From Sedimentisphaerales bacterium (GTDB lineage: Bacteria > Planctomycetota > Phycisphaerae > Sedimentisphaerales > SM23-30), in the NCBI GenBank assembly GCA_963667715.1, contig OY763926.1, forward strand, positions 909,249-973,248: 64,000 nucleotides of DNA. Direction: 5' to 3'. A model generated the notes under the pieces. The model did no database searches and was not told the origin of the DNA. It was given only the letters and a program-made list of their open reading frames with translations. This document shows positions 45,733-59,486 of the stretch, one piece after another. Every line of letters starts with the position of its first letter. The first letter of the stretch is position 1. A program made the translations under genes and the position numbers.

Positions 45733-46647
45733 ATGTTCGGAAGGATTTGGAAAATGGCAGGTTATGTAGAAAATATAGAGACTTCATGTGGATCGCCAAG
45801 GCTGCCGTCATTGCCGGGGCGTTTGGCAATAGTTGAAAAGATCATGTCAGACTCGATCTGCGATGAGGTTGTAAAGAAATATCGCCCTCGGGCCCAGTTT
45901 ACATTCTTTTGCGGTGAAGAGCCTGAGAGCCTGGCTGGAAGAGAAGGGCAGCTGGAGCTGGTAGGACGCTGTCTGGAATGGTTTGTATTTGACTATGTTA
46001 TTCCAGATCTATGTCAGACTCCTGCTCAATACTGGTTCAGCAGAAACAGTATGCGTCTGAGCAAAGAGGCTCGCCATGATGCGGCAGATTGTCTTAACTA
46101 TCAGACCAGTGTTTTCGAGATAGTAGAGGTTCATCCGATCTCAGGTTTTGTAGCTATTGATCTATTAAGAAACGGTAAGACTTACTTTGTTGATGAGCAT
46201 GTTATTAATGATCAGATCGAGCCAGGGCAGATGCTGCTGGGTCGTCTATTCCCACATCATGATAACTATTCATTGTCTGGTATGGCTACGATAATGGACA
46301 ATAGTGCCTGTCGTCAGGTTAGGCATATGATCAAATCTGGCAGGCTGAAAACTGATACCCTGCTTGAGGATCTTGACGGGCTGGAGCTGGAAAACCTTTA
46401 CGGTCGCAGCTTAATGAGGATTGATAAGTTATCAACCGATTCGCTTGCAGATAGGGTTTGTAATTATTTGGATATAACCGGCTCGGAGATGGATATTGAA
46501 GGATTGAAAGATTTTGTTTGCGAAGCTGATGACCCGGTTGTGGCAGCGGTGAATTTCTGTCGGGAAACCAAGATAGAATGTCGTCATGAGATAGAGCTTA
46601 TGATCGCTTATATAATGAACTTCTGGTTCAAGGCTCAGAGCTTCTAA
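45733..46647 (+). CDS. Hypothetical protein resembling the core of SEC-C-associated proteins
   Basis: 304-aa ORF; WFVFDY...TPAQYW, SVFEIVEV, IDLLRNGKTYFV, GQMLLGRL pattern; no SEC-C zinc motif. Confidence 0.7.
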   Translation: MFGRIWKMAGYVENIETSCGSPRLPSLPGRLAIVEKIMSDSICDEVVKKYRPRAQFTFFCGEEPESLAGREGQLELVGRCLEWFVFDYVIPDLCQTPAQYWFSRNSMRLSKEARHDAADCLNYQTSVFEIVEVHPISGFVAIDLLRNGKTYFVDEHVINDQIEPGQMLLGRLFPHHDNYSLSGMATIMDNSACRQVRHMIKSGRLKTDTLLEDLDGLELENLYGRSLMRIDKLSTDSLADRVCNYLDITGSEMDIEGLKDFVCEADDPVVAAVNFCRETKIECRHEIELMIAYIMNFWFKAQSF

Positions 46648-47305: not shown

Positions 47306-49108
47306 CTAGACTTTTTCGCCGCCAAGCTCGTCAAGTCTTCTTTCGAGAGCTTCATGCTGAGCTAACAGGTTAACCGGCATTCTATCGCCGAACTGCTTGA
47401 AGTATTCAGCAACACCGACCATTTCAGCTTTCCAGTCTTCAGGATTGATCTCGAACAGTTTTGTCATTGTTTCCTGGTCGATATCGATACCGGACATATC
47501 AATGTCGTTTAGTTTCGGAATGAAACCGATAGCAGTCTTGTCAGCGTCAACATCATGACGACATCTGGCCAGAATCCATTCAAGAACTCTGAGGTTTTCG
47601 CCGAAGCCAGGCCACATGAACTTACCGTTTTCATCCTGACGGAACCAGTTAACGTGGAAAATTTTCGGCTGCCATCTCATACGAACACCCATTCTCAGCC
47701 AATGTTCAAAGTAATCGGCCATATTGTAACCACAGAACGGCAGCATTGCCATTGGGTCGCGTCTTACTTCGCCGAGTTTACCAACCTGGGCTGCAGTACG
47801 TTCAGATGCCATAGTCGCACCCATATATACACCATGCTGCCAGTCAAATGCTTCGTAAACCAATGGAGCCAGTTTCGCACGACGGCCACCGAATATAATA
47901 GCAGAGATAGGTACACCATGATGGTGTTCAGTACGGAAAGAGTGGCTAGGACACTGTTCCAGTGGGGCAGTAAAGCGGCTGTTAGGATGTGCACCAGGGA
48001 TTTTCTTACCGTCGGCATCGGTCATGCCAGGCTTCCATGGGTTGCCTCTCCAGTCGATAGCACCTTCAGAGGCAGGTTCGCCGTCGCCGTCTTCCCACCA
48101 TACAGTGCCGTCTGGATTAAGTACGACGTTAGTGAAGATAGTATTTTTCTGAACAGTTTTAACAGCACTTGGGTTTGATTTGCTGTTGGTACCAGGAGCA
48201 ACGCCAAAGAATCCGTTTTCCGGGTTGATCGCCCAGAGTCTGCCGTCGGTATCAATTCTCATCCACGAGATATCATCACCCACGGTCCAGATCCTGTAGC
48301 CTTTAGACTTTAGACCTTCCGGCGGGATAAGCATAGCCAGGTTAGTCTTACCACAGGCACTTGGGAAAGCTGCGGCAACGTATTCGATCTTGCCGTTTGG
48401 TTCTTCAATACCCAGGATGAGCATATGTTCAGCCATCCACATTTCTTTGCGAGCCAGATGACTGGCGATACGCAGAGCGAGGCATTTTTTACCGAGCAGC
48501 ACGTTTCCGCCGTAACCACTGTTAACTGACCAGATAGTGTTATCTTCTGGGAAGTGTAGGATAAGGCGTTTTTCGATATCCAGGTCGGCTTTACTGTGCA
48601 GGCACTTGGTGAATTCGCCATTTGTGCCAAGGGCTTCCAGTACAGCATTGCCAACTCTTGTCATGATGATCATGTTAAGAACAACGTAAATACTGTCGGT
48701 GAGCTCGACACCAATTTTACTAAATGGAGAGCCGACAGGTCCCATGCTGAAAGGAACGACGTACATGGTACGCCCTTTCATAGAGCCGTTAAAGTATTCG
48801 CCAGCCTTGCGATATCCTTCGTCCGGGCTCATCCAGTTATTATTTGGTCCGGCATCATCTTTAAGCGGAGTACAGATAAAGGTCAGATGTTCAACGCGGG
48901 CAACATCGTTTTCTGCGGTCTTATGATATAGACAGCCAGGCAGAATTTCCTGATTAAGTTTGATAACCTCGCCAGATTCGCAAGCTTCTTCGGTAAGAGC
49001 ATCTTTTTGTGCAGTGCTGCCGTCAACAAGGACAATGTTGTCCGGCTGGCACATTTGAGCCATTTTGTCAATCCATTCATTTAATGCTGTATGCGCAGTT
49101 AAACCCAT
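47306..49108 (-). CDS. pckG: Phosphoenolpyruvate carboxykinase (GTP)
   Basis: DVARVE, SGYGGNVLLGKKC, AEHM, FPSACGKTNLAM, VGDDI, AHPNSRF, DPMAMLPFCGY. Confidence 0.97.
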   Translation of the reverse strand: MGLTAHTALNEWIDKMAQMCQPDNIVLVDGSTAQKDALTEEACESGEVIKLNQEILPGCLYHKTAENDVARVEHLTFICTPLKDDAGPNNNWMSPDEGYRKAGEYFNGSMKGRTMYVVPFSMGPVGSPFSKIGVELTDSIYVVLNMIIMTRVGNAVLEALGTNGEFTKCLHSKADLDIEKRLILHFPEDNTIWSVNSGYGGNVLLGKKCLALRIASHLARKEMWMAEHMLILGIEEPNGKIEYVAAAFPSACGKTNLAMLIPPEGLKSKGYRIWTVGDDISWMRIDTDGRLWAINPENGFFGVAPGTNSKSNPSAVKTVQKNTIFTNVVLNPDGTVWWEDGDGEPASEGAIDWRGNPWKPGMTDADGKKIPGAHPNSRFTAPLEQCPSHSFRTEHHHGVPISAIIFGGRRAKLAPLVYEAFDWQHGVYMGATMASERTAAQVGKLGEVRRDPMAMLPFCGYNMADYFEHWLRMGVRMRWQPKIFHVNWFRQDENGKFMWPGFGENLRVLEWILARCRHDVDADKTAIGFIPKLNDIDMSGIDIDQETMTKLFEINPEDWKAEMVGVAEYFKQFGDRMPVNLLAQHEALERRLDELGGEKV

Positions 49109-49222
49109 TTTTCTTACTCCTGAAAATAGAATTACTAGTTACGTTTATATTTTATTATTTGCGTTAATTTTATATAGAAAATGTATTTTATCTCTCGCGG
49201 CATAATAGATCATAGCCAAATG

Positions 49223-49251
49223 ATAGTAGTTTGTTAATTATGTTTTGTCAA
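49223..49251 (-). promoter_or_regulatory. Sigma70-type promoter of pckG
   Basis: TTGACA (49251-49246), 17-bp spacer, TACTAT (49228-49223). Confidence 0.65.
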
Positions 49252-49443
49252 GCTTTTGTTGGCTAATAAATAAGTTATCTGACCTTGTATTTTGTCATAA
49301 ATCTATCTGATACTGATGTTTATAGTGTTTTCTAATTAAGTCACCACATTTATGCGTCGATATTTATTCAGAATACATTTAATTGTGTATGAATATTTTA
49401 TGTGCAAATACTTAAGGTGCTAATGTACAAGGAGTTATATTTT

Positions 49444-51459
49444 ATGGAAAAACGGAGTTACAGCCATATTTTCCTGAATTCTGTATGTTACAATACAATG
49501 ATAGCATTACTTACATGTATTAGCATGGTTTTTGCGTCTGATAATAGCGTTGATATCACTATTGGTAATGATATTGACGGTTTGGGCAGTGATATAGTAG
49601 AAAATGAATTGCTATTATTTGAAGATATGCCGCTGGTGTATTCGGTGTCCAGATCAGCCCAGGAGATAGATGATCTTTCGATCCCTGTGAACGTTATAAC
49701 GGCAGATGATATTCATTATTCGGGTTTTACCAGTATCCCAGAGGCTTTAAGTTATAGTCTGGGTGTTGATATACTTCCGTCGAGCAGAAATGAATATCGT
49801 ATGTGTATGGAAGGTATCAGGTTCTCGTTCTTTGACAGGACGGTTACGCTGATCAATGGTCGCAATGTAAATAGTGTCGTTACCGGCGGTACAAATTACA
49901 TGGCAATCCCTGTATTTATGGAAGATATTGACAGGATAGAGGTTGTAAGGGGTGCAGGCGGAGCGGCCTGGGGTACAAATGCCTTTAATGGTGTAGTGAA
50001 TATAGTTACCAAGCGTCCAGAAGATATGCTTGGCTTTATGTATACAGGAACATTTAATGAATATGGTGATAGTTATAATCACTTCAGATGGGCAGAAATG
50101 AAAGATAGCTGGCAATGGCGAATTTCATCTGGCTATAGTGCCTGGACAACAACAGAAGATGCAGTTCATAATGACGATTTCACTTCAAACGATTTTGCTG
50201 CGATACGTAATCTTGATAGTGAGCTGATAATTGGCCTGAGTGATCTTACGGAATTGTCTTTTGGTGCTGCCTGGCTAAGGTCAAGGATGGGCGGGCGGTT
50301 CCAGCCAACACTGGCGACCTACTTTGACCCTACTGCACCATTTGTAGACAGGGTGAATAAGTCTGAATATCAGAGGTATTATGCCAAGCTGGAACGTAAG
50401 AAATATGATGACTACAGTTTCTATTTGCAGGTGTATAGTAATACAACACATTTAGATGAGCTGGTAGGTTTTCGTACCCGGACGATGGAAAATGACTTTG
50501 AAGGTCAGTTAGATCTGGATCTTGATAATCATAATTTATTGGTAGGTATTAACGCTCGTCAGTATAAGCTTGAATCATTGAGTAATCAGTATTCGTTCCA
50601 GTTTAATGAAAAAGACTATGATGATTATCAGGCTGGTATGTTTTTGATCGATCGCTGGTCAGTAAGTGATAACCTTGACATTGAGGGTCAGATACGTAAT
50701 GACTATTTCTCAAATCGAGATGCTTGTGACTGGTCGGGCAGATTGTCAGTTATTGATCATTTAGATGAAGAGTATAATCAGAAGCTTCGTTTAAGTGTAG
50801 CTCGTTCATTTAGGGCTGGAAGTTTTGGTTGGAAAGACACATATTTTCTTGACGTAAGAACAGACCCGGAAGCAAAGAATGAAGAGCTTGTCTCTTATGA
50901 AGCAGGTTATAGTATTGAGCCTACAGGCAATATTCATCTTGATCTAAATTCATATTATAGGAAATATAAAGACCTGCTAGGCACCTCAATTGCGTTTGAT
51001 CCTCTGGGCGGTATGTCGCTGTATATGAGTAATAACTGCGATATGGATGTTCTGGGAGTAGAGGCCAAACTGGGTTTGAATTATACGAAGTATTCAGCTG
51101 ATTTTTGGATGTCGTATGATGATCAGAAGTTTTATGAGTTGGCTACAAGTACATCATCTGCTTATCCTGCTAACCTTAAGGCAGGAGTTAATTGTCGTTA
51201 TGAATTATCTTCACTTTGGACGGCAAGTGCAAACTTTAAATACAGTGGTCGTACATTAGATACACGTGATGAGGATTATCTTGATAAGTATAGTCTGTGT
51301 ACAGTGGCATTTACCCGGAAGCTAAATGGCGGCAGGGGCGACTTAACCTTTGGTGTTAGTAATCTGTTTGATGATACTTGTGCTCTCTGGCAGAATTCAG
51401 ATGAGCTGGATAATTCAATAGGAAGAACGTTTTTTGGGAGAATACAGGTCAAGTTCTGA
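49444..51459 (+). CDS. TonB-dependent outer-membrane receptor
   Basis: Plug VYSVSR...VNVITADDI...IPEAL, LINGR, DIDRIEVVRGAGGAAWGTNAFNGVVNIVTK; C-terminal NLFD...GRTFFGRIQVKF; AAGGAG before the ATG at 49444. Confidence 0.92.
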   Translation: MEKRSYSHIFLNSVCYNTMIALLTCISMVFASDNSVDITIGNDIDGLGSDIVENELLLFEDMPLVYSVSRSAQEIDDLSIPVNVITADDIHYSGFTSIPEALSYSLGVDILPSSRNEYRMCMEGIRFSFFDRTVTLINGRNVNSVVTGGTNYMAIPVFMEDIDRIEVVRGAGGAAWGTNAFNGVVNIVTKRPEDMLGFMYTGTFNEYGDSYNHFRWAEMKDSWQWRISSGYSAWTTTEDAVHNDDFTSNDFAAIRNLDSELIIGLSDLTELSFGAAWLRSRMGGRFQPTLATYFDPTAPFVDRVNKSEYQRYYAKLERKKYDDYSFYLQVYSNTTHLDELVGFRTRTMENDFEGQLDLDLDNHNLLVGINARQYKLESLSNQYSFQFNEKDYDDYQAGMFLIDRWSVSDNLDIEGQIRNDYFSNRDACDWSGRLSVIDHLDEEYNQKLRLSVARSFRAGSFGWKDTYFLDVRTDPEAKNEELVSYEAGYSIEPTGNIHLDLNSYYRKYKDLLGTSIAFDPLGGMSLYMSNNCDMDVLGVEAKLGLNYTKYSADFWMSYDDQKFYELATSTSSAYPANLKAGVNCRYELSSLWTASANFKYSGRTLDTRDEDYLDKYSLCTVAFTRKLNGGRGDLTFGVSNLFDDTCALWQNSDELDNSIGRTFFGRIQVKF

Positions 51460-51480
51460 TCTTAGGATATAGTATAAATA

Positions 51481-52398
51481 ATGTTTACCAGATTTTTGAC
51501 AACTATAATGACAGTTTTAGTTCTATGCGGTTGCGTGCTCGCAGCTGATAGTGCTAATTTAGCTGTTATTCTTCAAGAAGGCAACGAGGAATATGAAGTT
51601 GCACTTGAGGAGTTTGTCCATCAGGTGGATAATACTGAGATAAAGTGCAGTGTTATGACATGCAGTGATGTTGAGAAAGCTGGTGAATTGAATTATGCCG
51701 TTTACGACATGTTTGTTGTGATCGGTTCGAAAGCAGCTCTTGCAGTACAGGATAATGTGCCTCGTGGTATTCCTGTAGCGTACTGTATGGTCTATTCGCC
51801 TGAAAAGGTAGGTCTTACCTCTGAGCCGGTTAATTTTGGTATATCACTGCGAGTTAGTGTTAGTGACCAGATCGGGCTTGTTCGTCAGGTGCTGCCATAT
51901 AGCAAGACAATGGTCACATTTATTAATCAGACCCAGTTTAGCAGGCAGGATTGGCCGCTTACGGAGTGGCCGGAGTCTCCAGATTATATGACAGTAATTG
52001 TACCGGACGAAATACGCAATTCTGAAAGAGCTGGTCATGTTAAAAGACTGATCAATACATCACCAGATGTTATCTGGACATATCCAGATTCAAATGTCTT
52101 TCATATGATAACAATGAAGATGGTTTTACTAGAGTCTATAAGACGTAAGATTCCGGTTTTTGGCTACTCTGAGAATGTTGTTAAAGCAGGTGCACTAATG
52201 GGAGTGACTGTAGAGTCACGGGATCAGGGTAGGCAATTGGCAGAGATGGTCAGAGCTGTTATTGCAGGTGAAGAGCTGGTAGAGAGGCATAGAAATGCAA
52301 GTTTTAAGCCGGTATTTAACCTGGCGGTAGCTGATATTATTGGGGTAGAGATCCCTGAGAATATTTTGTCGCAGGCGAAATATGTTTATGGCAGATAA
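51481..52398 (+). CDS. Periplasmic ABC-substrate-binding-like protein (ABC_sub_bind type) without cognate permease
   Basis: Signal peptide; VIGSKAA, IPVAYCMV, IPVFGYSENVVKAGALM, DQGRQLAEM, FNLAVADIIGVEIP..IL..A. Confidence 0.78.
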   Translation: MFTRFLTTIMTVLVLCGCVLAADSANLAVILQEGNEEYEVALEEFVHQVDNTEIKCSVMTCSDVEKAGELNYAVYDMFVVIGSKAALAVQDNVPRGIPVAYCMVYSPEKVGLTSEPVNFGISLRVSVSDQIGLVRQVLPYSKTMVTFINQTQFSRQDWPLTEWPESPDYMTVIVPDEIRNSERAGHVKRLINTSPDVIWTYPDSNVFHMITMKMVLLESIRRKIPVFGYSENVVKAGALMGVTVESRDQGRQLAEMVRAVIAGEELVERHRNASFKPVFNLAVADIIGVEIPENILSQAKYVYGR

Positions 52399-52449
52399 CT
52401 GTATAACATAAATATTGAGAAGATAATAGATTGTTAAAAAGGACACCAG

Positions 52450-55400
52450 ATGTTTAGGTTTCTGAGAAAAAAAGGACTGCTGGTAAAGGCCACAGCTGCG
52501 GTGGTTGCAATTGTGAGTTTGGCTCTTATTGCAGTTACTGTAGTTGGTTCAGTGCGTATTTACAGTTTTGTATTGGAAGACTGTAAGCGTGAAGCATCCA
52601 ATTATGCCGCGCAGATGGGCAAGATGGTCGAGTTGCCGCTGGTTGTTGAAAATACTGAAGAGCTTGATCAGCAGGTATTTTCATTTGGTCAGATACCGCA
52701 TATGCTCTTTGTTCTTATATACAATTCAAAAGATGAGCTTGTTTCCAGTTATATCAAAAATGAATACGCTTACAACCGATACCAATCAGGCGTTGAAGAA
52801 AATAGTGCGTTTTGGGTACAGGAAATGCCGGTTGTTCTTGCTAATGTGGTAGGTGGTTATAGTCCAGATGCAGAGACTCCAGAAAGTCTGGCATCTGAAC
52901 ATTCTCTGGTCGGAGACAATGTTGAAGCGGTAGGCAAAGTGGTTTTGGGCTTATCCAAAAATGTGGTAGATAAGGCTTTTCGTGGTTATTGCTACAGTAT
53001 GGTTTCGATAAGTCTGGTAGTACTGTTGGTAAGTTCGCTGGTGACCATGTTTATTGTCAAATACATGGTTAATAAGCTGGAATTGCTTATAGCTGCCAGT
53101 CGCAGGATAGCCCGCGGCGACCTTGATTTTGATATGGGACATCTCGAAGGAGATGATGAGCTTGGTTCTTTGGCAACCTCGTTTAAGAAGATGAGAGATG
53201 CTATTTGTGACCGTGACAGGGAGCTCAGGGAGCTTAACAGCTCGCTGCAAAGGCAGGTTGAAACACGTACCGTGGAGCTTGTTGAAGCGAATGAGAAGTT
53301 AAGAGATGAAATGGTAAGCAGGGTGAAATACCAGTGCCGTTTACAGGAAAGTGAACAGCTTTTCCGTTCTCTATATGAATCTTCTCAGGATGCAGTATTG
53401 TTGATTAATGAAAGTTTCAGAATATTTGATTGTAATGACAGGGCTTTGGAACTGTTTGGCTGCAAGAGTCGCTCAGATGTTCTTAATATGAGTCCGGTGG
53501 ACTTTTCGCCGGAAAGACAACCTTGTGGTATCGAGTCTGCGATCCTTTTCCAGAAAACTTTAAGTTCTGCGGTGTTTAAGGGCAGTCACAGGTTCGAATG
53601 GGAATTCCGTGATGAAGAAAAGCGTTCTGTTGAATGTGAAGTATGCTTCTCTGCTATGACAGTAAATGATCGCAGGGTTATTCAGGCGGTTATTCGCGAT
53701 ATTACCAAGCAGAAACGTCACGAGCAGGTTCTGAAAATGGCTAAGGAACAGGCGGAGGCAGCGAATAAATCCAAGAGTGAATTTCTTGCCTGTATGACCC
53801 ACGAGATCAGAACCCCGATGAATGGTATTATCGGTATGTCTGAGCTTTTGGAGAAAACCGGGCTTAGTGATAAGCAGGTTAATTATGTCGACGTATTGAA
53901 GTCTTCAGCTACTCTTATGTTAGATCTGATCAATTCTATATTAGATTTCTCTAAGATAGAAGCTGGTAAGATGGAGCTTGATGAGTATTCATTTAATTTG
54001 AAGAGTTCTATCGAAAATAATATGAGGGTATTAAGCTCTGTGGCCTCTAAGAAAGGTGTGACCTTAAAGTATAACTATGATGGTGAGGGAATAGAGCATG
54101 TATATGGTGACGAAGGTAAGCTTAGGCAGGTACTTCTTAACCTTATTGGAAATGCTATTAAGTTCTCAAATGATCAGGGTGATCCACAGATTACCGTCTC
54201 TTGTGAGCTGATTGACCATGAAGATGATATTGCCTTGTTTACCTTTACTGTTACCGATAATGGTATTGGTATTCCTCATGAGCAGCAGGAGAAGCTGTTC
54301 TCAGCGTTTACCCAGGCAGATTCAACTACTACTCGTAAGTACGGTGGGACTGGTCTTGGCCTTGCGATCAGTAAAGGTCTGGTTAAACTTCTGGGTGGTA
54401 ATATTGGTGTGGTAAGTAACTATGGTGAAGGTTCTTCGTTCTGGTTTACCGCTTGCTTCAGGGTGATCGATAAAGCAGAAGTGGAGACGGTTGAATCCAG
54501 TGTTGTAAATGAAGTAATTGGTCAGGAAGTTGTTGACGGTACAGGTATGAAAGTGCTTGTAGTTGAGGATAATGAAGTAAATCAGATGGTGGTTGTAGAA
54601 ATGCTCAAGCAGTTGCACTGTGAGGTTCGGGTTGCTGAGCATGGTCTGGAAGCACTTGAGATCGTTCGTGATTTCGATTGTGATATTATTCTTATGGACT
54701 GTCTCATGCCGGAAATGGATGGCTATGAGGCAACTCGTCAGATTAAAACTCTTATTGCCAATGGCGGCTTGAAGTGGTGTGATCCATCACATAATCTACC
54801 TATAATTGCCCTGACCGCGAATATGAGAGGCAGTGACAGGGAAAAGTGCGTTGAAGCAGGTATGGATGACTTTATGGGTAAGCCATTCTTGTTTGAGGAG
54901 CTTGTTGGTATGCTTCTGGAGTATGTTCCGCATAAAACTACCAGTGTTCCAGCGTCAGCTGTAAGCAGTTCATCTGAAGTGCAGTCAGATGCCGGAAATG
55001 ATGGTTCTGAGGTTGTTTCTAACGGTTCTGGTGATAATGTTATAAATAACGTTGGTGCTGATAATCAGGCGGAACAATCTGCCGCAGAGTATGGTTCTGG
55101 TGGAGTTGATGAAAAACAGAAATCACCAGAACATTATGCAGGGGAAGAAGATATGATACCGATAAAAGTTGATGAGTTCCTTGATAGATGTATGGGGAAT
55201 ATCGATTTGTTTGATAGAATGCTTGATAAATTTGAAGAGCAGGTTGAGATTAATTTTACTAATCTGATTGAATACCTTGAAAGCGAAGATGTAGAATCTG
55301 TTAGAAGAGTAGCTCATACCGTTAAGGGTATGGCGGCTAATACTTCGGCAGTAGATCTTATGGTTGTAGCTGCTCGCGTAGAGGAACTGGCCAAAATAGG

Positions 55401-55506
55401 TGAGCTCGATACTGTTAAAAATTATATGAATGAGCTGCAATCTGAGATAAAGAAATGTTTGGAATACATACCGGAGGCTAAAGATGTCGGAAGAAAACAA
55501 AGTTAA
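52450..55506 (+). CDS. Unorthodox hybrid sensor histidine kinase (periplasmic sensor-HAMP-PAS-HisKA-HATPase-REC-Hpt)
   Basis: MTHEIRTPMNG, LLNLIGNAIKF, DNGIGI, GGTGLGL; REC VEDN...LMDCLMPEMDG...ALTA...KP; Hpt AHTVKGMAAN. Confidence 0.94.
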   Translation: MFRFLRKKGLLVKATAAVVAIVSLALIAVTVVGSVRIYSFVLEDCKREASNYAAQMGKMVELPLVVENTEELDQQVFSFGQIPHMLFVLIYNSKDELVSSYIKNEYAYNRYQSGVEENSAFWVQEMPVVLANVVGGYSPDAETPESLASEHSLVGDNVEAVGKVVLGLSKNVVDKAFRGYCYSMVSISLVVLLVSSLVTMFIVKYMVNKLELLIAASRRIARGDLDFDMGHLEGDDELGSLATSFKKMRDAICDRDRELRELNSSLQRQVETRTVELVEANEKLRDEMVSRVKYQCRLQESEQLFRSLYESSQDAVLLINESFRIFDCNDRALELFGCKSRSDVLNMSPVDFSPERQPCGIESAILFQKTLSSAVFKGSHRFEWEFRDEEKRSVECEVCFSAMTVNDRRVIQAVIRDITKQKRHEQVLKMAKEQAEAANKSKSEFLACMTHEIRTPMNGIIGMSELLEKTGLSDKQVNYVDVLKSSATLMLDLINSILDFSKIEAGKMELDEYSFNLKSSIENNMRVLSSVASKKGVTLKYNYDGEGIEHVYGDEGKLRQVLLNLIGNAIKFSNDQGDPQITVSCELIDHEDDIALFTFTVTDNGIGIPHEQQEKLFSAFTQADSTTTRKYGGTGLGLAISKGLVKLLGGNIGVVSNYGEGSSFWFTACFRVIDKAEVETVESSVVNEVIGQEVVDGTGMKVLVVEDNEVNQMVVVEMLKQLHCEVRVAEHGLEALEIVRDFDCDIILMDCLMPEMDGYEATRQIKTLIANGGLKWCDPSHNLPIIALTANMRGSDREKCVEAGMDDFMGKPFLFEELVGMLLEYVPHKTTSVPASAVSSSSEVQSDAGNDGSEVVSNGSGDNVINNVGADNQAEQSAAEYGSGGVDEKQKSPEHYAGEEDMIPIKVDEFLDRCMGNIDLFDRMLDKFEEQVEINFTNLIEYLESEDVESVRRVAHTVKGMAANTSAVDLMVVAARVEELAKIGELDTVKNYMNELQSEIKKCLEYIPEAKDVGRKQS

Positions 55507-56515
55507 GATATTGATCGCCGACGATAATGAGATGGACTTGTGTCTGCTGGAGAATATGCTTCTGCAGCACAATTATATTCCATTAAAAGCGACCAATGGG
55601 CAAGAGGCTTTGGATGTCCTCAATGGCGACGATGAATGCCAGATGGTCATTACAGACTGGGACATGCCACTTATGAACGGACCAGAGCTGTGTCGGAAGA
55701 TCAGAAAGAATATATCGAATTATGTGTATATTATTATCCTTACTGCAAGTAGTTCTCGTGGTTCGGTGGTGGAAGGTCTGGCCGCAGGTGCAGATGATTA
55801 TATTGTCAAGCCATTTAACCCGGCAGAGCTTGCGGTACGTTTGCTTGCTGGTCGTAGAGTTGTGAATCTTGAGAGTCATGAACTTCTGATTTATGCAATG
55901 GCTAAACTTGCTGAATCTCGTGACCCGGAAACAGGTTTCCATCTTGAGAGAGTGAGAAACTATTGCAGGGTTCTGTCGCTTAATTTATATGAAAATGGCA
56001 AGTATCCAGAGGTGATTGACCCGGACTTTATCCGTCTTATGTACAATACCAGTCCAATGCATGATATTGGCAAGGTTGGAATTCCAGATAGGATATTGCA
56101 GAAACCGGGAAGGCTCACTCCAGAGGAATTTGAGCTTATGAAACAGCATACGGTTATTGGCGGAGAGACCCTTGAAGCGGCTCTGAATGAGTTTCCGCAT
56201 GCCAGATATCTCAGGGTAGCGTATGATATTGCTATTTCACATCATGAAAAGTGGAACGGTGCAGGTTATCCTTCCGGGCTTGCCGGTCAGGACATACCGA
56301 TCAGTGCCAGAGTTATGGCGGTAGCGGATGTTTATGATGCATTAACATCAAAGAGAGTGTATAAAGACGCATTTTCCCATGAAAAGGCGTGTGGCATAAT
56401 TGTAGGTGATAGCGGTACTCATTTTGATCCAACCATTATAGAATCGTTTTCACTGGTTGCAGAGCTCTTTAACGAGATTCGCGGCAGCTATGAAGATGTG
56501 TTATGTGAGGTGTAG
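55484..56515 (+). CDS. Response regulator with HD-GYP cyclic-di-GMP phosphodiesterase domain (RpfG-like)
   Basis: REC IADDN...TDWDMP...KPF; RDPETGFH, MHDIGKVG, HHEKWNGAGYP, ADVYDAL..KRVYK; overlaps the kinase 3' end by 23 nt. Confidence 0.94.
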   Translation: MSEENKVKILIADDNEMDLCLLENMLLQHNYIPLKATNGQEALDVLNGDDECQMVITDWDMPLMNGPELCRKIRKNISNYVYIIILTASSSRGSVVEGLAAGADDYIVKPFNPAELAVRLLAGRRVVNLESHELLIYAMAKLAESRDPETGFHLERVRNYCRVLSLNLYENGKYPEVIDPDFIRLMYNTSPMHDIGKVGIPDRILQKPGRLTPEEFELMKQHTVIGGETLEAALNEFPHARYLRVAYDIAISHHEKWNGAGYPSGLAGQDIPISARVMAVADVYDALTSKRVYKDAFSHEKACGIIVGDSGTHFDPTIIESFSLVAELFNEIRGSYEDVLCEV

Positions 56516-56724
56516 GCAGCTGTTTTTCCTTACGGTATAACGATGGTCGCGTTAGCCGTAAGGGTATTACATTGAGTGCGAGTGTTTTAACTCTTTTTGA
56601 TAGTATTACTTGCTTGATAATTCCACTTAAAGCCATTAAAATCCTGTTTCCTGTTGTTTCAGGACTTTGAGATAGCTGTTAGAATACAGTGTCAGTTAGA
56701 TGAATATTGTAGAAAGGATTACAA

Positions 56725-57836: not shown

Positions 57837-59486
57837 TTGCCAACTTTATATATATCACAAGGCTCTGACAAGGGTAGAACATATCCGGTAAATGAATCAC
57901 CAGCTATTATTGGTCGTAATAGCCCTGATGTACCTCTTACCGATAATACCGTTTCCAGGCGACATGCAGAACTCATCAGCAAGACAGATGATTGCTGGGT
58001 TATCAGGGATCTGGGAAGTGCTAACGGCACTTATGTAAACGGTGTAAAGCTATCAGGCTTTATGGATCTCAAGCAGGGTGACCAGGTTCGTTGCGGTGCT
58101 ACTTTGATCGTTTTCGGTCAGAAAAAAACCGGCAGCGGTGTTACGGTCGATCCGGTAGGTTTGCAGATCGATTCAAACGGTAACCTGATCGAGTCATCCA
58201 TTATGGCTACGACCCCAGGGCTAGATGATTCAGTTATTATTGCTGGTCCTGAGACATCCTCTGCTGTTGGCAACCTCAGACTGCTTTATGAGCTTTCTAC
58301 TACTATTAACTCAATCTTTGATGAAGAGCAGCTGCTCGAGAAGGTAATGGATATTGTTTTTGATAATCTTCCAGCCGATCGTGGTTTTATTCTGCTTAGA
58401 GAAGATGAGAGTAAGCCAATAGTTCCTGTTGCAATTCGCTATCGGGACGAATCTCAGAAGGATTCTGGTAAAATAGCAGTTAGTCATACAATTGTAGAAC
58501 ATGCAATCGAAAAGCGTGAGGGTGTTATATGTACCAATGCTATGCGTGACCCTCGTTTTGCCAAAGGTGAGAGCGTGCATAATTTTGCTATTCGCTCAGC
58601 CTTATGTGTACCTATTGCAGTAAGAAATAATGTTATGGGTGTTATTTACGTTGATACTACCATGGCTACTAATACATATGCAGGTGAGCAGTTAGAACTT
58701 CTGACTGCGATTGGTTATCAAACCGGTCTGGCTATTGAAAATGCCCGTTTGTATCATAGTGGAGTAAAGGCTGAAAGGCTGGCGGCTACGGGTGAAACAG
58801 TAGCATATATTTCACATGGTATAAAAAATATTCTCCAGGGTATGCAGAGTGCTGCCGATCTGGTAGATATGGGTTTTCATAAGAAAAAGCCGGAAATGGC
58901 TGAAAAAGGCTGGAAAGTCGTAAAAAGGAACCAGACCCGCGTACAGAACCTTATGCTTAATATGCTTGCTTTTAGTAAGGTGCGCAAGCCAAATAAGGAA
59001 ATGGCACAGCTTAACCATCTGGTTTCTGAAACGGTGGATATGCTCAGTGAAAATGCCCATCAGAAGGGCGTTGGTCTGTTTTCTGACCTGGACAATCATC
59101 TGCCGCCGATACCTATCGATTCTGACGGTATACAGCAGGTATTGCTTAACCTTATCCTGAATGCATTTGATATTCTTGAATCAGGTGAGGGGGTTATTAC
59201 TGTTAAGACCTCATTTAATGTTGTCAAAGGCAATGCTTTGCTTATTGTCAGTGATAATGGTCCTGGTATTGAGCAATCGCAATTGGCTGATATCTTTACC
59301 GCGTTCCATTCGAGTAAAGGCCACGGCGGAACAGGTTTGGGATTGGCGGTTGTGAAAAAGATCGTAGAAGAGCACGGCGGTACTGTTAGTGTGGACAGTA
59401 AGAGTGATGAAGGAACAACTTTCACTATCACTCTACCGACAGCTACAACTATAAGCAGTGGCGAGACTGCGAGCGATACCGTTTAA
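57837..59486 (+). CDS. Cytoplasmic FHA-GAF-histidine kinase
   Basis: FHA IIGR..VSRRHA..DLGSANGT; GAF IRSALCVPI..GVIYVD; H-box ISHGIKNIL; NLILNA, DNGPGI, GTGLGL. Confidence 0.92.
   Translation: MPTLYISQGSDKGRTYPVNESPAIIGRNSPDVPLTDNTVSRRHAELISKTDDCWVIRDLGSANGTYVNGVKLSGFMDLKQGDQVRCGATLIVFGQKKTGSGVTVDPVGLQIDSNGNLIESSIMATTPGLDDSVIIAGPETSSAVGNLRLLYELSTTINSIFDEEQLLEKVMDIVFDNLPADRGFILLREDESKPIVPVAIRYRDESQKDSGKIAVSHTIVEHAIEKREGVICTNAMRDPRFAKGESVHNFAIRSALCVPIAVRNNVMGVIYVDTTMATNTYAGEQLELLTAIGYQTGLAIENARLYHSGVKAERLAATGETVAYISHGIKNILQGMQSAADLVDMGFHKKKPEMAEKGWKVVKRNQTRVQNLMLNMLAFSKVRKPNKEMAQLNHLVSETVDMLSENAHQKGVGLFSDLDNHLPPIPIDSDGIQQVLLNLILNAFDILESGEGVITVKTSFNVVKGNALLIVSDNGPGIEQSQLADIFTAFHSSKGHGGTGLGLAVVKKIVEEHGGTVSVDSKSDEGTTFTITLPTATTISSGETASDTV

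Follow-up and report, generated by a model that had tools for sequence, protein, structure and literature searches.

A candidate envelope-spanning sensory cassette in a planctomycete, built from a TonB-dependent receptor, an orphan PF04392 binding protein, a hybrid histidine kinase and an HD-GYP regulator

Membrane histidine kinases that depend on a periplasmic binding protein are well established, as in TorT/TorS and LuxP/LuxQ, and so is the pairing of a hybrid kinase with a response regulator composed of a receiver (REC) and an HD-GYP phosphodiesterase domain, as in RpfC/RpfG. TonB-dependent receptors (TBDRs) stand first in other pathways that report an external molecule, namely the FecA/FecR/FecI-type transducers and PfeA-PfeS/R. 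Here, we describe four adjacent genes of a Sedimentisphaerales bacterium (Planctomycetota) that encode a TBDR, a periplasmic substrate-binding protein (SBP) of family PF04392, an unorthodox hybrid kinase ending in a histidine phosphotransfer (Hpt) domain, and a REC-HD-GYP regulator. The window, that is the whole stretch of 64,000 nucleotides (nt) that was analysed, corresponds to G000:C1:909249-973248 in a closed genome of 4.59 Mb (98% complete). We propose that the four genes on balance probably constitute one envelope-spanning sensory cassette, with an input of the PahS/PahP/PahK type described below and cyclic di-GMP (c-di-GMP) as output; that the first three genes work together is a claim we make with considerable confidence.

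The closest described system is that of Cycloclasticus sp. P1, in which pahS (a TBDR of 687 amino acids (aa)), pahP (a periplasmic SBP of 318 aa) and pahK (a histidine kinase of 771 aa) are adjacent (Wang et al., iScience 2023, PMC10570129). According to this report, these three genes and a distant gene for a GacA-type regulator, pahR, are all required for growth on polycyclic aromatic hydrocarbons, and the four pah genes occur in 74 proteobacterial genomes. Co-immunoprecipitation, surface plasmon resonance, two-hybrid and Förster resonance energy transfer experiments are described in which PahP binds PahS and loaded PahP binds PahK, with modulation by the ligand, which in the authors' account acts solely as a signal (PMC10570129). 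PahP is claimed there to be the first SBP with a part in signalling, which is at odds with the SBP-stimulated receptors presented in a review (PMC10443332). No second paper that combines external polycyclic aromatic hydrocarbons with TonB-dependent sensing was found in a literature search.

The genes and domains of the planctomycete locus that are compared with this system are as follows (positions in the window).

49444..51459, + strand: TBDR, 671 aa from ATG 49444, with the open reading frame (ORF) open from GTG 49402 (Pfam; ribosome-binding site AAGGAG)
49603..49653, + strand: conserved N-terminal TBDR motif NELLLFEDMPLVYSVSR, residues 54-70 (N-terminus alignment of 13 cassette TBDRs)
51481..52398, + strand: SBP, PF04392 ABC_sub_bind, 305 aa, with signal peptide (Pfam 65.3 bits vs cut-off 25.9)
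52450..55506, + strand: unorthodox hybrid histidine kinase, 1018 aa, with the order transmembrane segment, periplasmic domain, transmembrane segment, HAMP, PAS, HisKA, HATPase, REC, Hpt (Pfam)
52561..52995, + strand: periplasmic sensor domain of the kinase, residues ~38-182, single-Cache/PDC-like fold (model, Foldseek)
55216..55449, + strand: Hpt domain of the kinase, residues 923-1000 (Pfam Hpt 39.5 bits vs cut-off 24.6)
55484..56515, + strand: response regulator with HD-GYP phosphodiesterase domain, 343 aa, whose start overlaps the kinase stop by 23 nt (Pfam)

The order of TBDR, periplasmic SBP and membrane kinase is identical to that of the Pah system, and the likeness is one of layout and size, taken from the published description and not from sequence: the Pah proteins of 687, 318 and 771 aa compare with 671 and 305 aa in the window and with 801-836 aa for the simpler cassette kinases. 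As described, both systems are without a pair of extracytoplasmic function (ECF) sigma and anti-sigma factors, and the Pah binder is proposed to ferry a purely signalling ligand from receptor to kinase, as we propose for the window cassette. A screen for the pocket residues of PahP was uninformative, as the best of the 168 proteins screened reached 5 of 6 residues at an arbitrary offset. The systems differ in output, since the Pah output is a GacA-type DNA-binding regulator encoded elsewhere, whereas that of the window would be an Hpt relay to the adjacent REC-HD-GYP protein (PMC10570129, PMC8547461). The window kinase has PAS and Hpt domains in addition to those of PahK, and while PahK is said to be without a periplasmic sensor domain, the window kinase has a Cache-like one of ~145 aa, which is likewise uncalled by Pfam. 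The hosts also belong to different phyla, Proteobacteria and Planctomycetota. The original prediction stated that no characterised example of this four-part architecture was known; this no longer holds for the three-part input, for which PahS-PahP-PahK is a precedent (PMC10570129), but it stands for the combination with an adjacent HD-GYP gene, of which none was found in print. Nor did literature searches turn up a paper on the cassette in Planctomycetota or on its union with an HD-GYP output. New here is the predicted Hpt relay to an adjacent HD-GYP phosphodiesterase, the design of the input half being already published (PMC10570129).

All four genes lie in series on the + strand (ORF list and Pfam), with gaps of 21 nt between the TBDR and SBP genes and of 51 nt between the SBP and kinase genes, and with the 23-nt overlap at the last junction. 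These spacings, calculated from the ORF coordinates, agree with those first noted for the locus, and the assignment of its four genes was confirmed by Pfam matches that all exceed the curated cut-offs. A scan of 13 ORFs from 44 to 63 kb identified no ATP-binding cassette (ABC) permease, ATPase, ECF sigma factor or anti-sigma factor, in line with the reported absence of such genes from the neighbourhood.

We infer the ligand passage, the protein contacts, the phosphotransfer and the sign of the response in the following chain. The TonB-energised receptor would capture an external molecule, probably one too large or too scarce for porins, and release it into the periplasm, where the transporter-less PF04392 binder would take it up. 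The loaded binder would dock on the hybrid kinase at its single-Cache-like periplasmic domain and shift the autophosphorylation state of the kinase, so that phosphate would pass from His to the Asp of the kinase's own REC domain, on to the His of the Hpt domain, and finally to the Asp of the REC-HD-GYP protein. Altered phosphodiesterase activity would then shift the c-di-GMP level, and hence surface-attached versus free-living behaviour.

Each half of this chain resembles known systems. In TorT/TorS and LuxP/LuxQ an orphan type-I periplasmic binding protein governs a membrane kinase via its periplasmic domain, and TorS is an unorthodox HisKA-REC-Hpt kinase like that of the window. The binders of these systems, however, belong to other families, no outer-membrane receptor gene is known to take part, and the outputs are transcription factors or the LuxU relay; the window kinase scores under the TorS and LuxQ cut-offs. 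On the output side, RpfC/RpfG of Xanthomonas, VieS/VieA and RocS1/RocR each pair a hybrid kinase that has REC and Hpt domains with a c-di-GMP phosphodiesterase that bears a receiver domain and is phosphorylated by the kinase. RpfG is a REC-HD-GYP protein like the window regulator, and VieS and RocS1 carry binding-protein-type periplasmic domains, whereas RpfC senses diffusible signal factor via membrane helices, VieA and RocR are EAL enzymes, and none of the three systems is known to have a linked TBDR or a separate PF04392 binder. Unlike FecA-type transducers, the window locus has no N-terminal signalling domain, anti-sigma factor or ECF sigma factor, and a separate binder stands between receptor and kinase.

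The gene order is conserved in relatives, with the trio of TBDR, SBP and kinase genes kept well beyond the genus and the four-gene set present in a distant family; the original prediction had named loss of this order as evidence against it. With the TBDR as query (E <= 1e-40), homologues were found in 15 of 400 other Planctomycetota genomes. A PF04392-type gene directly follows the TBDR gene in 11 of these 15, and in all 11 the third gene encodes a kinase with a homologous transmembrane-periplasmic-transmembrane-HAMP part. Matches to the SBP were found in 8 of 61 related genomes (G000 counted). All three genus mates carry the cluster in a shared PEPCK/NDK/MTAP context (the copy of G002 is cut by a contig end), and they are weak evidence for linkage because this flanking synteny is shared. 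The complete four-gene set is also present, with different neighbours, in G403 and G259 of family f94 (59-63% GC), where it consists of a TBDR, an SBP, a kinase with HAMP-HisKA-HATPase-REC-Hpt architecture and a REC-HD-GYP protein with 51% identity to the window regulator. Hpt-bearing cassette kinases occur in three lineages (the window genus, f94 and genus g230), in two of which the next gene encodes a REC-HD-GYP protein; the next gene does so in none of the seven scanned loci with an Hpt-less kinase (L018, L032, L033, L088, L095, L096 and L098). An apparent SBP-kinase fusion in L098 was rejected as an ORF-calling artefact of this locus of 69% GC.

A chance juxtaposition, held together by genus-level synteny alone, would be compatible with the PEPCK/NDK/MTAP context shared by the three genus mates. 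The trio is, however, found in different contexts in eight further families and genera as well as in other phyla, and the four-gene set recurs in f94. Recurrence across genera, families and phyla shows that the gene linkage is not chance, and we regard accidental juxtaposition as excluded for practical purposes.

The AlphaFold model of the SBP (predicted local distance difference test, pLDDT, 92) has as its top folds in the PDB the PF04392 structures 3lft (with L-Trp), 3lkv and 6hni/6hnj, with a template modelling score of 0.74 to the open form. These are followed by ribose-binding-type proteins, including TorT of the TorS-TorT complex at rank 15. The SBP has a type-I binding-protein fold and scores above the PF04392 gathering threshold, and a search of the ESM Atlas agrees on this family. 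An analogy with YfiR that had been drawn for the SBP is unsupported, because Pfam, the model and the fold search all place it in the PF04392 type-I binding-protein fold. The subfamily is large, with 28,297, 12,863 and 2,860 representative clusters at E <= 1e-3, 1e-10 and 1e-30, respectively; among 10 of the best 150 subfamily matches, one bears the IMG label 'tryptophan/tyrosine transport'. A word-index search with profile A5 yielded 17 proteins, none bearing a proteobacterial name, and neither it nor the subfamily search gave a named Cycloclasticus protein.

A second rival explanation is a role in nutrient uptake, in which the TBDR and SBP would feed an inner-membrane transporter encoded elsewhere, the kinase and the HD-GYP protein being mere neighbours or regulators of uptake. 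By name and by its solved examples PF04392 is an ABC substrate-binding family, reported to bind L-Trp, L-Tyr and L-Phe (PMC10443332), and true ABC contexts were identified in L121 and L125 and on plasmids of Salinivibrio and Pseudomonas aeruginosa, where genes for an ABC permease and ATPase follow the PF04392 gene (tblastn against plasmids). In true ABC systems such as L121, PF04392 is accompanied by permeases of family PF02653 (BPD_transp_2); this family gave zero matches across the closed, 98% complete genome, whereas the identical search was positive in 12 of 14 genomes used as control. Use of the SBP by a distant ABC permease, an outcome that would have spoken against the original prediction, is therefore unlikely. 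In addition, none of the six PF04392 domains in the genome adjoins a transporter. All six are linked to signalling: one is the cassette SBP, one is encoded upstream of a chemoreceptor gene, and four are fused to histidine kinases. The scanned flanks of the cassette loci are likewise without a transporter gene beside the trio, apart from an opposite-strand gene of the major facilitator superfamily in L095. We consider the uptake explanation improbable, and the genome is a clean test case for the sensory one because it holds no ABC permease to confound it.

Besides the cassette SBP gene, one further PF04392 gene (320 aa) stands alone; it precedes a gene for a 493-aa methyl-accepting chemotaxis protein by 60 nt at G000:C1:1530633-1533135 (L049 8633-11136), and the two likely form a binder-chemoreceptor pair. 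The N-terminus of this chemoreceptor was not homologous to the periplasmic domain of the cassette kinase (hhalign probability 0.7%). The four fusions are long histidine kinases of 1251, 1283, 1015 and 1551 aa with an N-terminal PF04392-like domain, three of which also have SBP_bac_3. They are encoded at ~4.074-4.082 Mb (L050 4088-11691), 3.540 Mb (L024 9749-12796) and 1.388-1.393 Mb (L025 6177-10832) of G000:C1.

The TBDR has the Plug and 22-strand barrel domains of its class, with Pfam matches to Plug (52.6 bits, E 7.6e-14) and TonB_dep_Rec_b-barrel (62.1 bits, E 1.2e-16), and the genome encodes the TonB-ExbB-ExbD machinery in the form of one TonB gene clustered with two ExbB-type genes (MotA_ExbB) and one ExbD gene. 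The best NCBIfam match was the TOL_0244 family (NF053590) at 158.9 bits, under the cut-off of 645; other cassette TBDRs of the Planctomycetota score 180-198 bits against the same model. No N-terminal signalling (STN) domain was matched by Pfam in the TBDR, where only ~40 residues separate the signal peptide from the plug. In this short region, immediately N-terminal of the plug, alignment of the 13 cassette TBDRs revealed the common motif (D/E)ELLLFED.P.V.SASR, which in the window consists of an acidic/hydrophobic ELLLFED element and a TonB-box-like strand. The last part of the motif looks like a TonB box, and we speculate that the ELLLFED part may be a docking site for the binder on the receptor.

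There are five TBDR genes in the genome, and the other four are not adjacent to PF04392 genes. One of them, at G000:C1:4299919-4301913 (- strand; L051 6917-8929; hereafter the 4.30 Mb paralogue), encodes a protein that shares 46% identity with the cassette receptor. Genus mate G003 has a second TBDR copy in tandem, and a quick IQ-TREE tree places the paralogue as sister to this copy (SH-aLRT 99), which identifies the paralogue as a duplicate of the cassette receptor that has moved elsewhere in the genome. The 4.30 Mb paralogue adjoins a gene for an ArsP-type permease and an 880-aa ORF that has no Pfam match.

In the kinase, the HisKA, HATPase, REC and Hpt modules all score above the Pfam cut-offs, and the H-box, receiver Asp and HxxKG motifs are intact in the translation. 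The nearest NCBIfam models were TorS (the best, at 412 bits), BarA and ArcB, none of which reached its equivalog cut-off. The model of the N-terminal part (pLDDT 81) has a long helix, a short helix and four strands with one helix between them, followed by a disordered loop at residues 133-157, the second transmembrane segment and HAMP. Its best Foldseek match was an integrative WalK-YycH model (E 2e-9), and further matches, at E 3e-3 to 0.2, were to solved WalK extracellular domains, a Clostridium sensor domain, a LapD-like periplasmic domain and LuxQ. The single-Cache/PDC-like fold class is known to dock periplasmic partner proteins. The periplasmic domain is homologous across all cassette kinases (alignment A3), and among 17 orthologous domains Pfam matched sCache_4 (PF09984) in 7 at E <= 0.01, sCache_3_2 in 7 and CHASE8 in 4.

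The main rival explanation is that the SBP and the kinase form a periplasmic co-sensor of the LuxP/LuxQ or TorT/TorS kind, which would respond to a solute arriving by any route, with the TBDR as a co-transcribed importer or a regulated target. SBP-kinase links without a TBDR do exist: L056 has genes for a sigma-54 regulator, an SBP and a kinase, and in L020/L021 a REC-HD-GYP protein and an SBP are encoded with a kinase whose periplasmic domain is homologous to that of the cassette (hhalign probability 98%). The PF04392 domains fused to kinases or encoded beside the chemoreceptor gene in the window genome have no TBDR nearby, and TBDR homologues also stand alone. A co-sensor without the receptor is, however, harder to reconcile with the TBDR gene being directly upstream, and tightly spaced, in 11 of the 15 genomes and in three phyla, and the published binding of PahP to PahS points the other way as well (PMC10570129). 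The divergence of the SBP also tracks that of the TBDR. Among genus mates, identities were 86-89% for the HD-GYP protein, 71-78% for the whole kinase, 52-56% for the kinase periplasmic domain, 41-50% for the SBP and 46-54% for the TBDR. Over 45 pairs from 10 cassette loci, SBP identity correlated with that of the TBDR (Spearman 0.69) and of the kinase periplasmic domain (0.70), and weakly with that of the kinase cytoplasmic part (0.19), a co-variation that is suggestive only because the pairs are related to one another. In our judgement the co-sensor explanation is unlikely, though it deserves more weight than any other rival.

The variant cluster of L020 (7800-15616) and L021, from G019 and G024 of one family, has no adjacent TBDR gene. 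It comprises genes for a REC-HD-GYP protein, a PF04392 protein, a HAMP-PAS kinase whose periplasmic domain is the homologous one, and two each of REC-HDOD and receiver proteins. A 692-aa ORF upstream of the L020 cluster was considered as a TBDR and rejected after the scan.

The regulator matches Response_reg (83.3 bits), HD_5 (104.9 bits) and HD in Pfam, and its translation has HDIGK, HHEKWNGAGYP and the receiver Asp intact, as in REC-HD-GYP proteins of the RpfG type. The 6 GGDEF proteins and 12 HD_5 proteins of the genome mean that c-di-GMP signalling exists in it. Sensing might still occur as proposed while the HD-GYP protein lacks c-di-GMP phosphodiesterase activity or does not partner the kinase; it may act on another cyclic dinucleotide or be a sink for phosphate, the true output regulator being encoded elsewhere, like PahR. 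Most cassette kinases are without an adjacent HD-GYP gene, as is one Hpt-bearing lineage, and the published system uses a distant GacA-type regulator (PMC10570129, PMC8547461). Furthermore, the best NCBIfam match of the regulator, to the NosR-family REC-PDE, reached 144.7 bits against a cut-off of 400. Yet the HD, HHE..G.GYP and receiver motifs are intact and GGDEF proteins are present, and the pair of kinase and regulator is kept in f94 at 51% identity. Translation of the two genes also appears to be coupled, as suggested by the 23-nt overlap together with an internal GGAGG. A separate role for the HD-GYP protein is thus given little credence here, about as little as nutrient uptake.

Several points weigh against a single cassette comprising all four genes. 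On the input side, the Pah precedent is a single study from one laboratory (PMC10570129), and the supposed kinship to PahS/PahP/PahK rests on gene order and protein sizes. The 4.30 Mb paralogue of the receptor has neither an SBP nor a kinase gene beside it, and in 4 of the 15 genomes with a TBDR homologue, all four in family f6 of the same order, there is no adjoining SBP gene. Pfam gave no match for the periplasmic domain of the window kinase itself. The pairs behind the co-variation are non-independent and its figures stand without a significance test. On the output side, the lineage in which an Hpt kinase lacks an adjacent HD-GYP gene is represented by G279 and G339, and the choice of c-di-GMP over other cyclic dinucleotides as what the HD-GYP domain acts on is an assumption drawn from its family.

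If the envelope-spanning cassette that we favour is real, an energised outer-membrane channel and a transporter-less binder together make up a dedicated sensor of the outside, in an organism far from the hydrocarbon degraders of the original report, and this sensor is wired straight to the c-di-GMP switch between attached and free-living behaviour. Many genome annotations and transporter inventories would then be wrong, the members of the large SBP subfamily being routinely labelled 'ABC transporter substrate-binding protein' or 'hypothetical'.

The trio recurs in two phyla besides Planctomycetota. In the phylum of G453 (a 'Deltaproteobacteria' metagenome-assembled genome, itself counted), 37 of 301 genomes match the SBP profile at E <= 1e-20, and the gene contexts of 30 loci were examined. 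A TBDR gene lies directly upstream of the SBP gene on the same strand in 6 of the 30, with a HAMP kinase gene downstream as well in 3 of those 6; one of these three kinases matches sCache_4 at E 1e-8. True ABC systems account for 2 of the 30 loci. A further cassette is carried by a cultured bacterium, Geobacter anodireducens, on the 110-kb plasmid pSD (CP014964.1 5475-10221; L134 3097-7843), and encodes a TBDR of 619 aa, a PF04392 protein of 290 aa, a HAMP kinase of 494 aa and a receiver protein of 128 aa, all four annotated as 'hypothetical protein'. A metagenome scan (12 loci) yielded a single TBDR-SBP pair and a single SBP-kinase pair.

In 13 of the 30 loci examined in the phylum of G453 (L114-L120, L122-L124, L127, L129 and L131), PF04392 is encoded directly downstream of, or in one frame with, a PEGA-domain Ser/Thr kinase (12 with Pkinase, 1 with PEGA only). 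This suggests that the PF04392 binder family also serves as an extracytoplasmic sensor of eukaryote-like kinases.

Taken jointly, these observations allow a broader proposal, which we put forward only tentatively and consider rather doubtful as a whole: that the trio represents a phylum-spanning mode of cell-surface signalling with import for sensing only and interchangeable outputs, that PF04392 is wholly given to signalling in the present genome, and that ELLLFED is the dock of the binder. Were it true, it would constitute a third mode beside ECF/anti-sigma transducers and the hybrid two-component systems of Bacteroidetes. Its outputs would be transcription, chemotaxis, Ser/Thr kinases and, here, c-di-GMP hydrolysis via the Hpt relay, and in this planctomycete the PF04392 family would be devoted to signalling, in all six domains and with no permease.

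Two further features border the cassette.

49109..49443, no strand: AT-rich intergenic region, flanked by the divergent PEPCK (- strand) and TBDR genes (GC 0.36 in the 49000-49999 bin)
56528..56563, + strand: inverted repeat (8-bp arms CCTTACGG / CCGTAAGG, loop of 20 nt), 13 nt past the HD-GYP stop (read directly)

The divergent intergenic region is likely the promoter region of the cassette. Promoter-like hexamers numbered 27 against 23.5 in shuffled sequences, and no promoter was assigned because they are no commoner than in the shuffles. Ribosome-binding sites are present as AAGGAG, 7 nt upstream of the TBDR ATG 49444, as AAGGA before the kinase gene and as GGAGG before the HD-GYP gene. A terminator scan of 9 kb (5 sites against 5.4 expected) placed none at any of the three junctions, as had been noted from the sequence at the outset. 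Its + strand sites at 51165, 52340 and 54178 all fall within coding sequence, that at 52340 being 40 nt ahead of the SBP stop. The inverted repeat may mark the end of the transcript; it is weak evidence because the terminator scan passed over it, its loop being longer than 8 nt and a T-run being absent.

The flanks are unrelated to the cassette (Pfam, NCBIfam). Upstream, on the opposite strand, lie PEPCK and NDK, and downstream lie MTAP, an FHA-GAF kinase, a TetR regulator and efflux genes. The FHA-GAF kinase gene (window 57837-59486, +) is located two genes past the cassette, after the MTAP gene, and encodes a cytoplasmic FHA-GAF-HisKA-HATPase protein of 549 aa; nothing was seen in the Pfam scan that ties it to the cassette. 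An ORF of 304 aa without Pfam or NCBIfam matches is located at window 45733-46647 (+), between the polyprenyl synthase and NDK genes.

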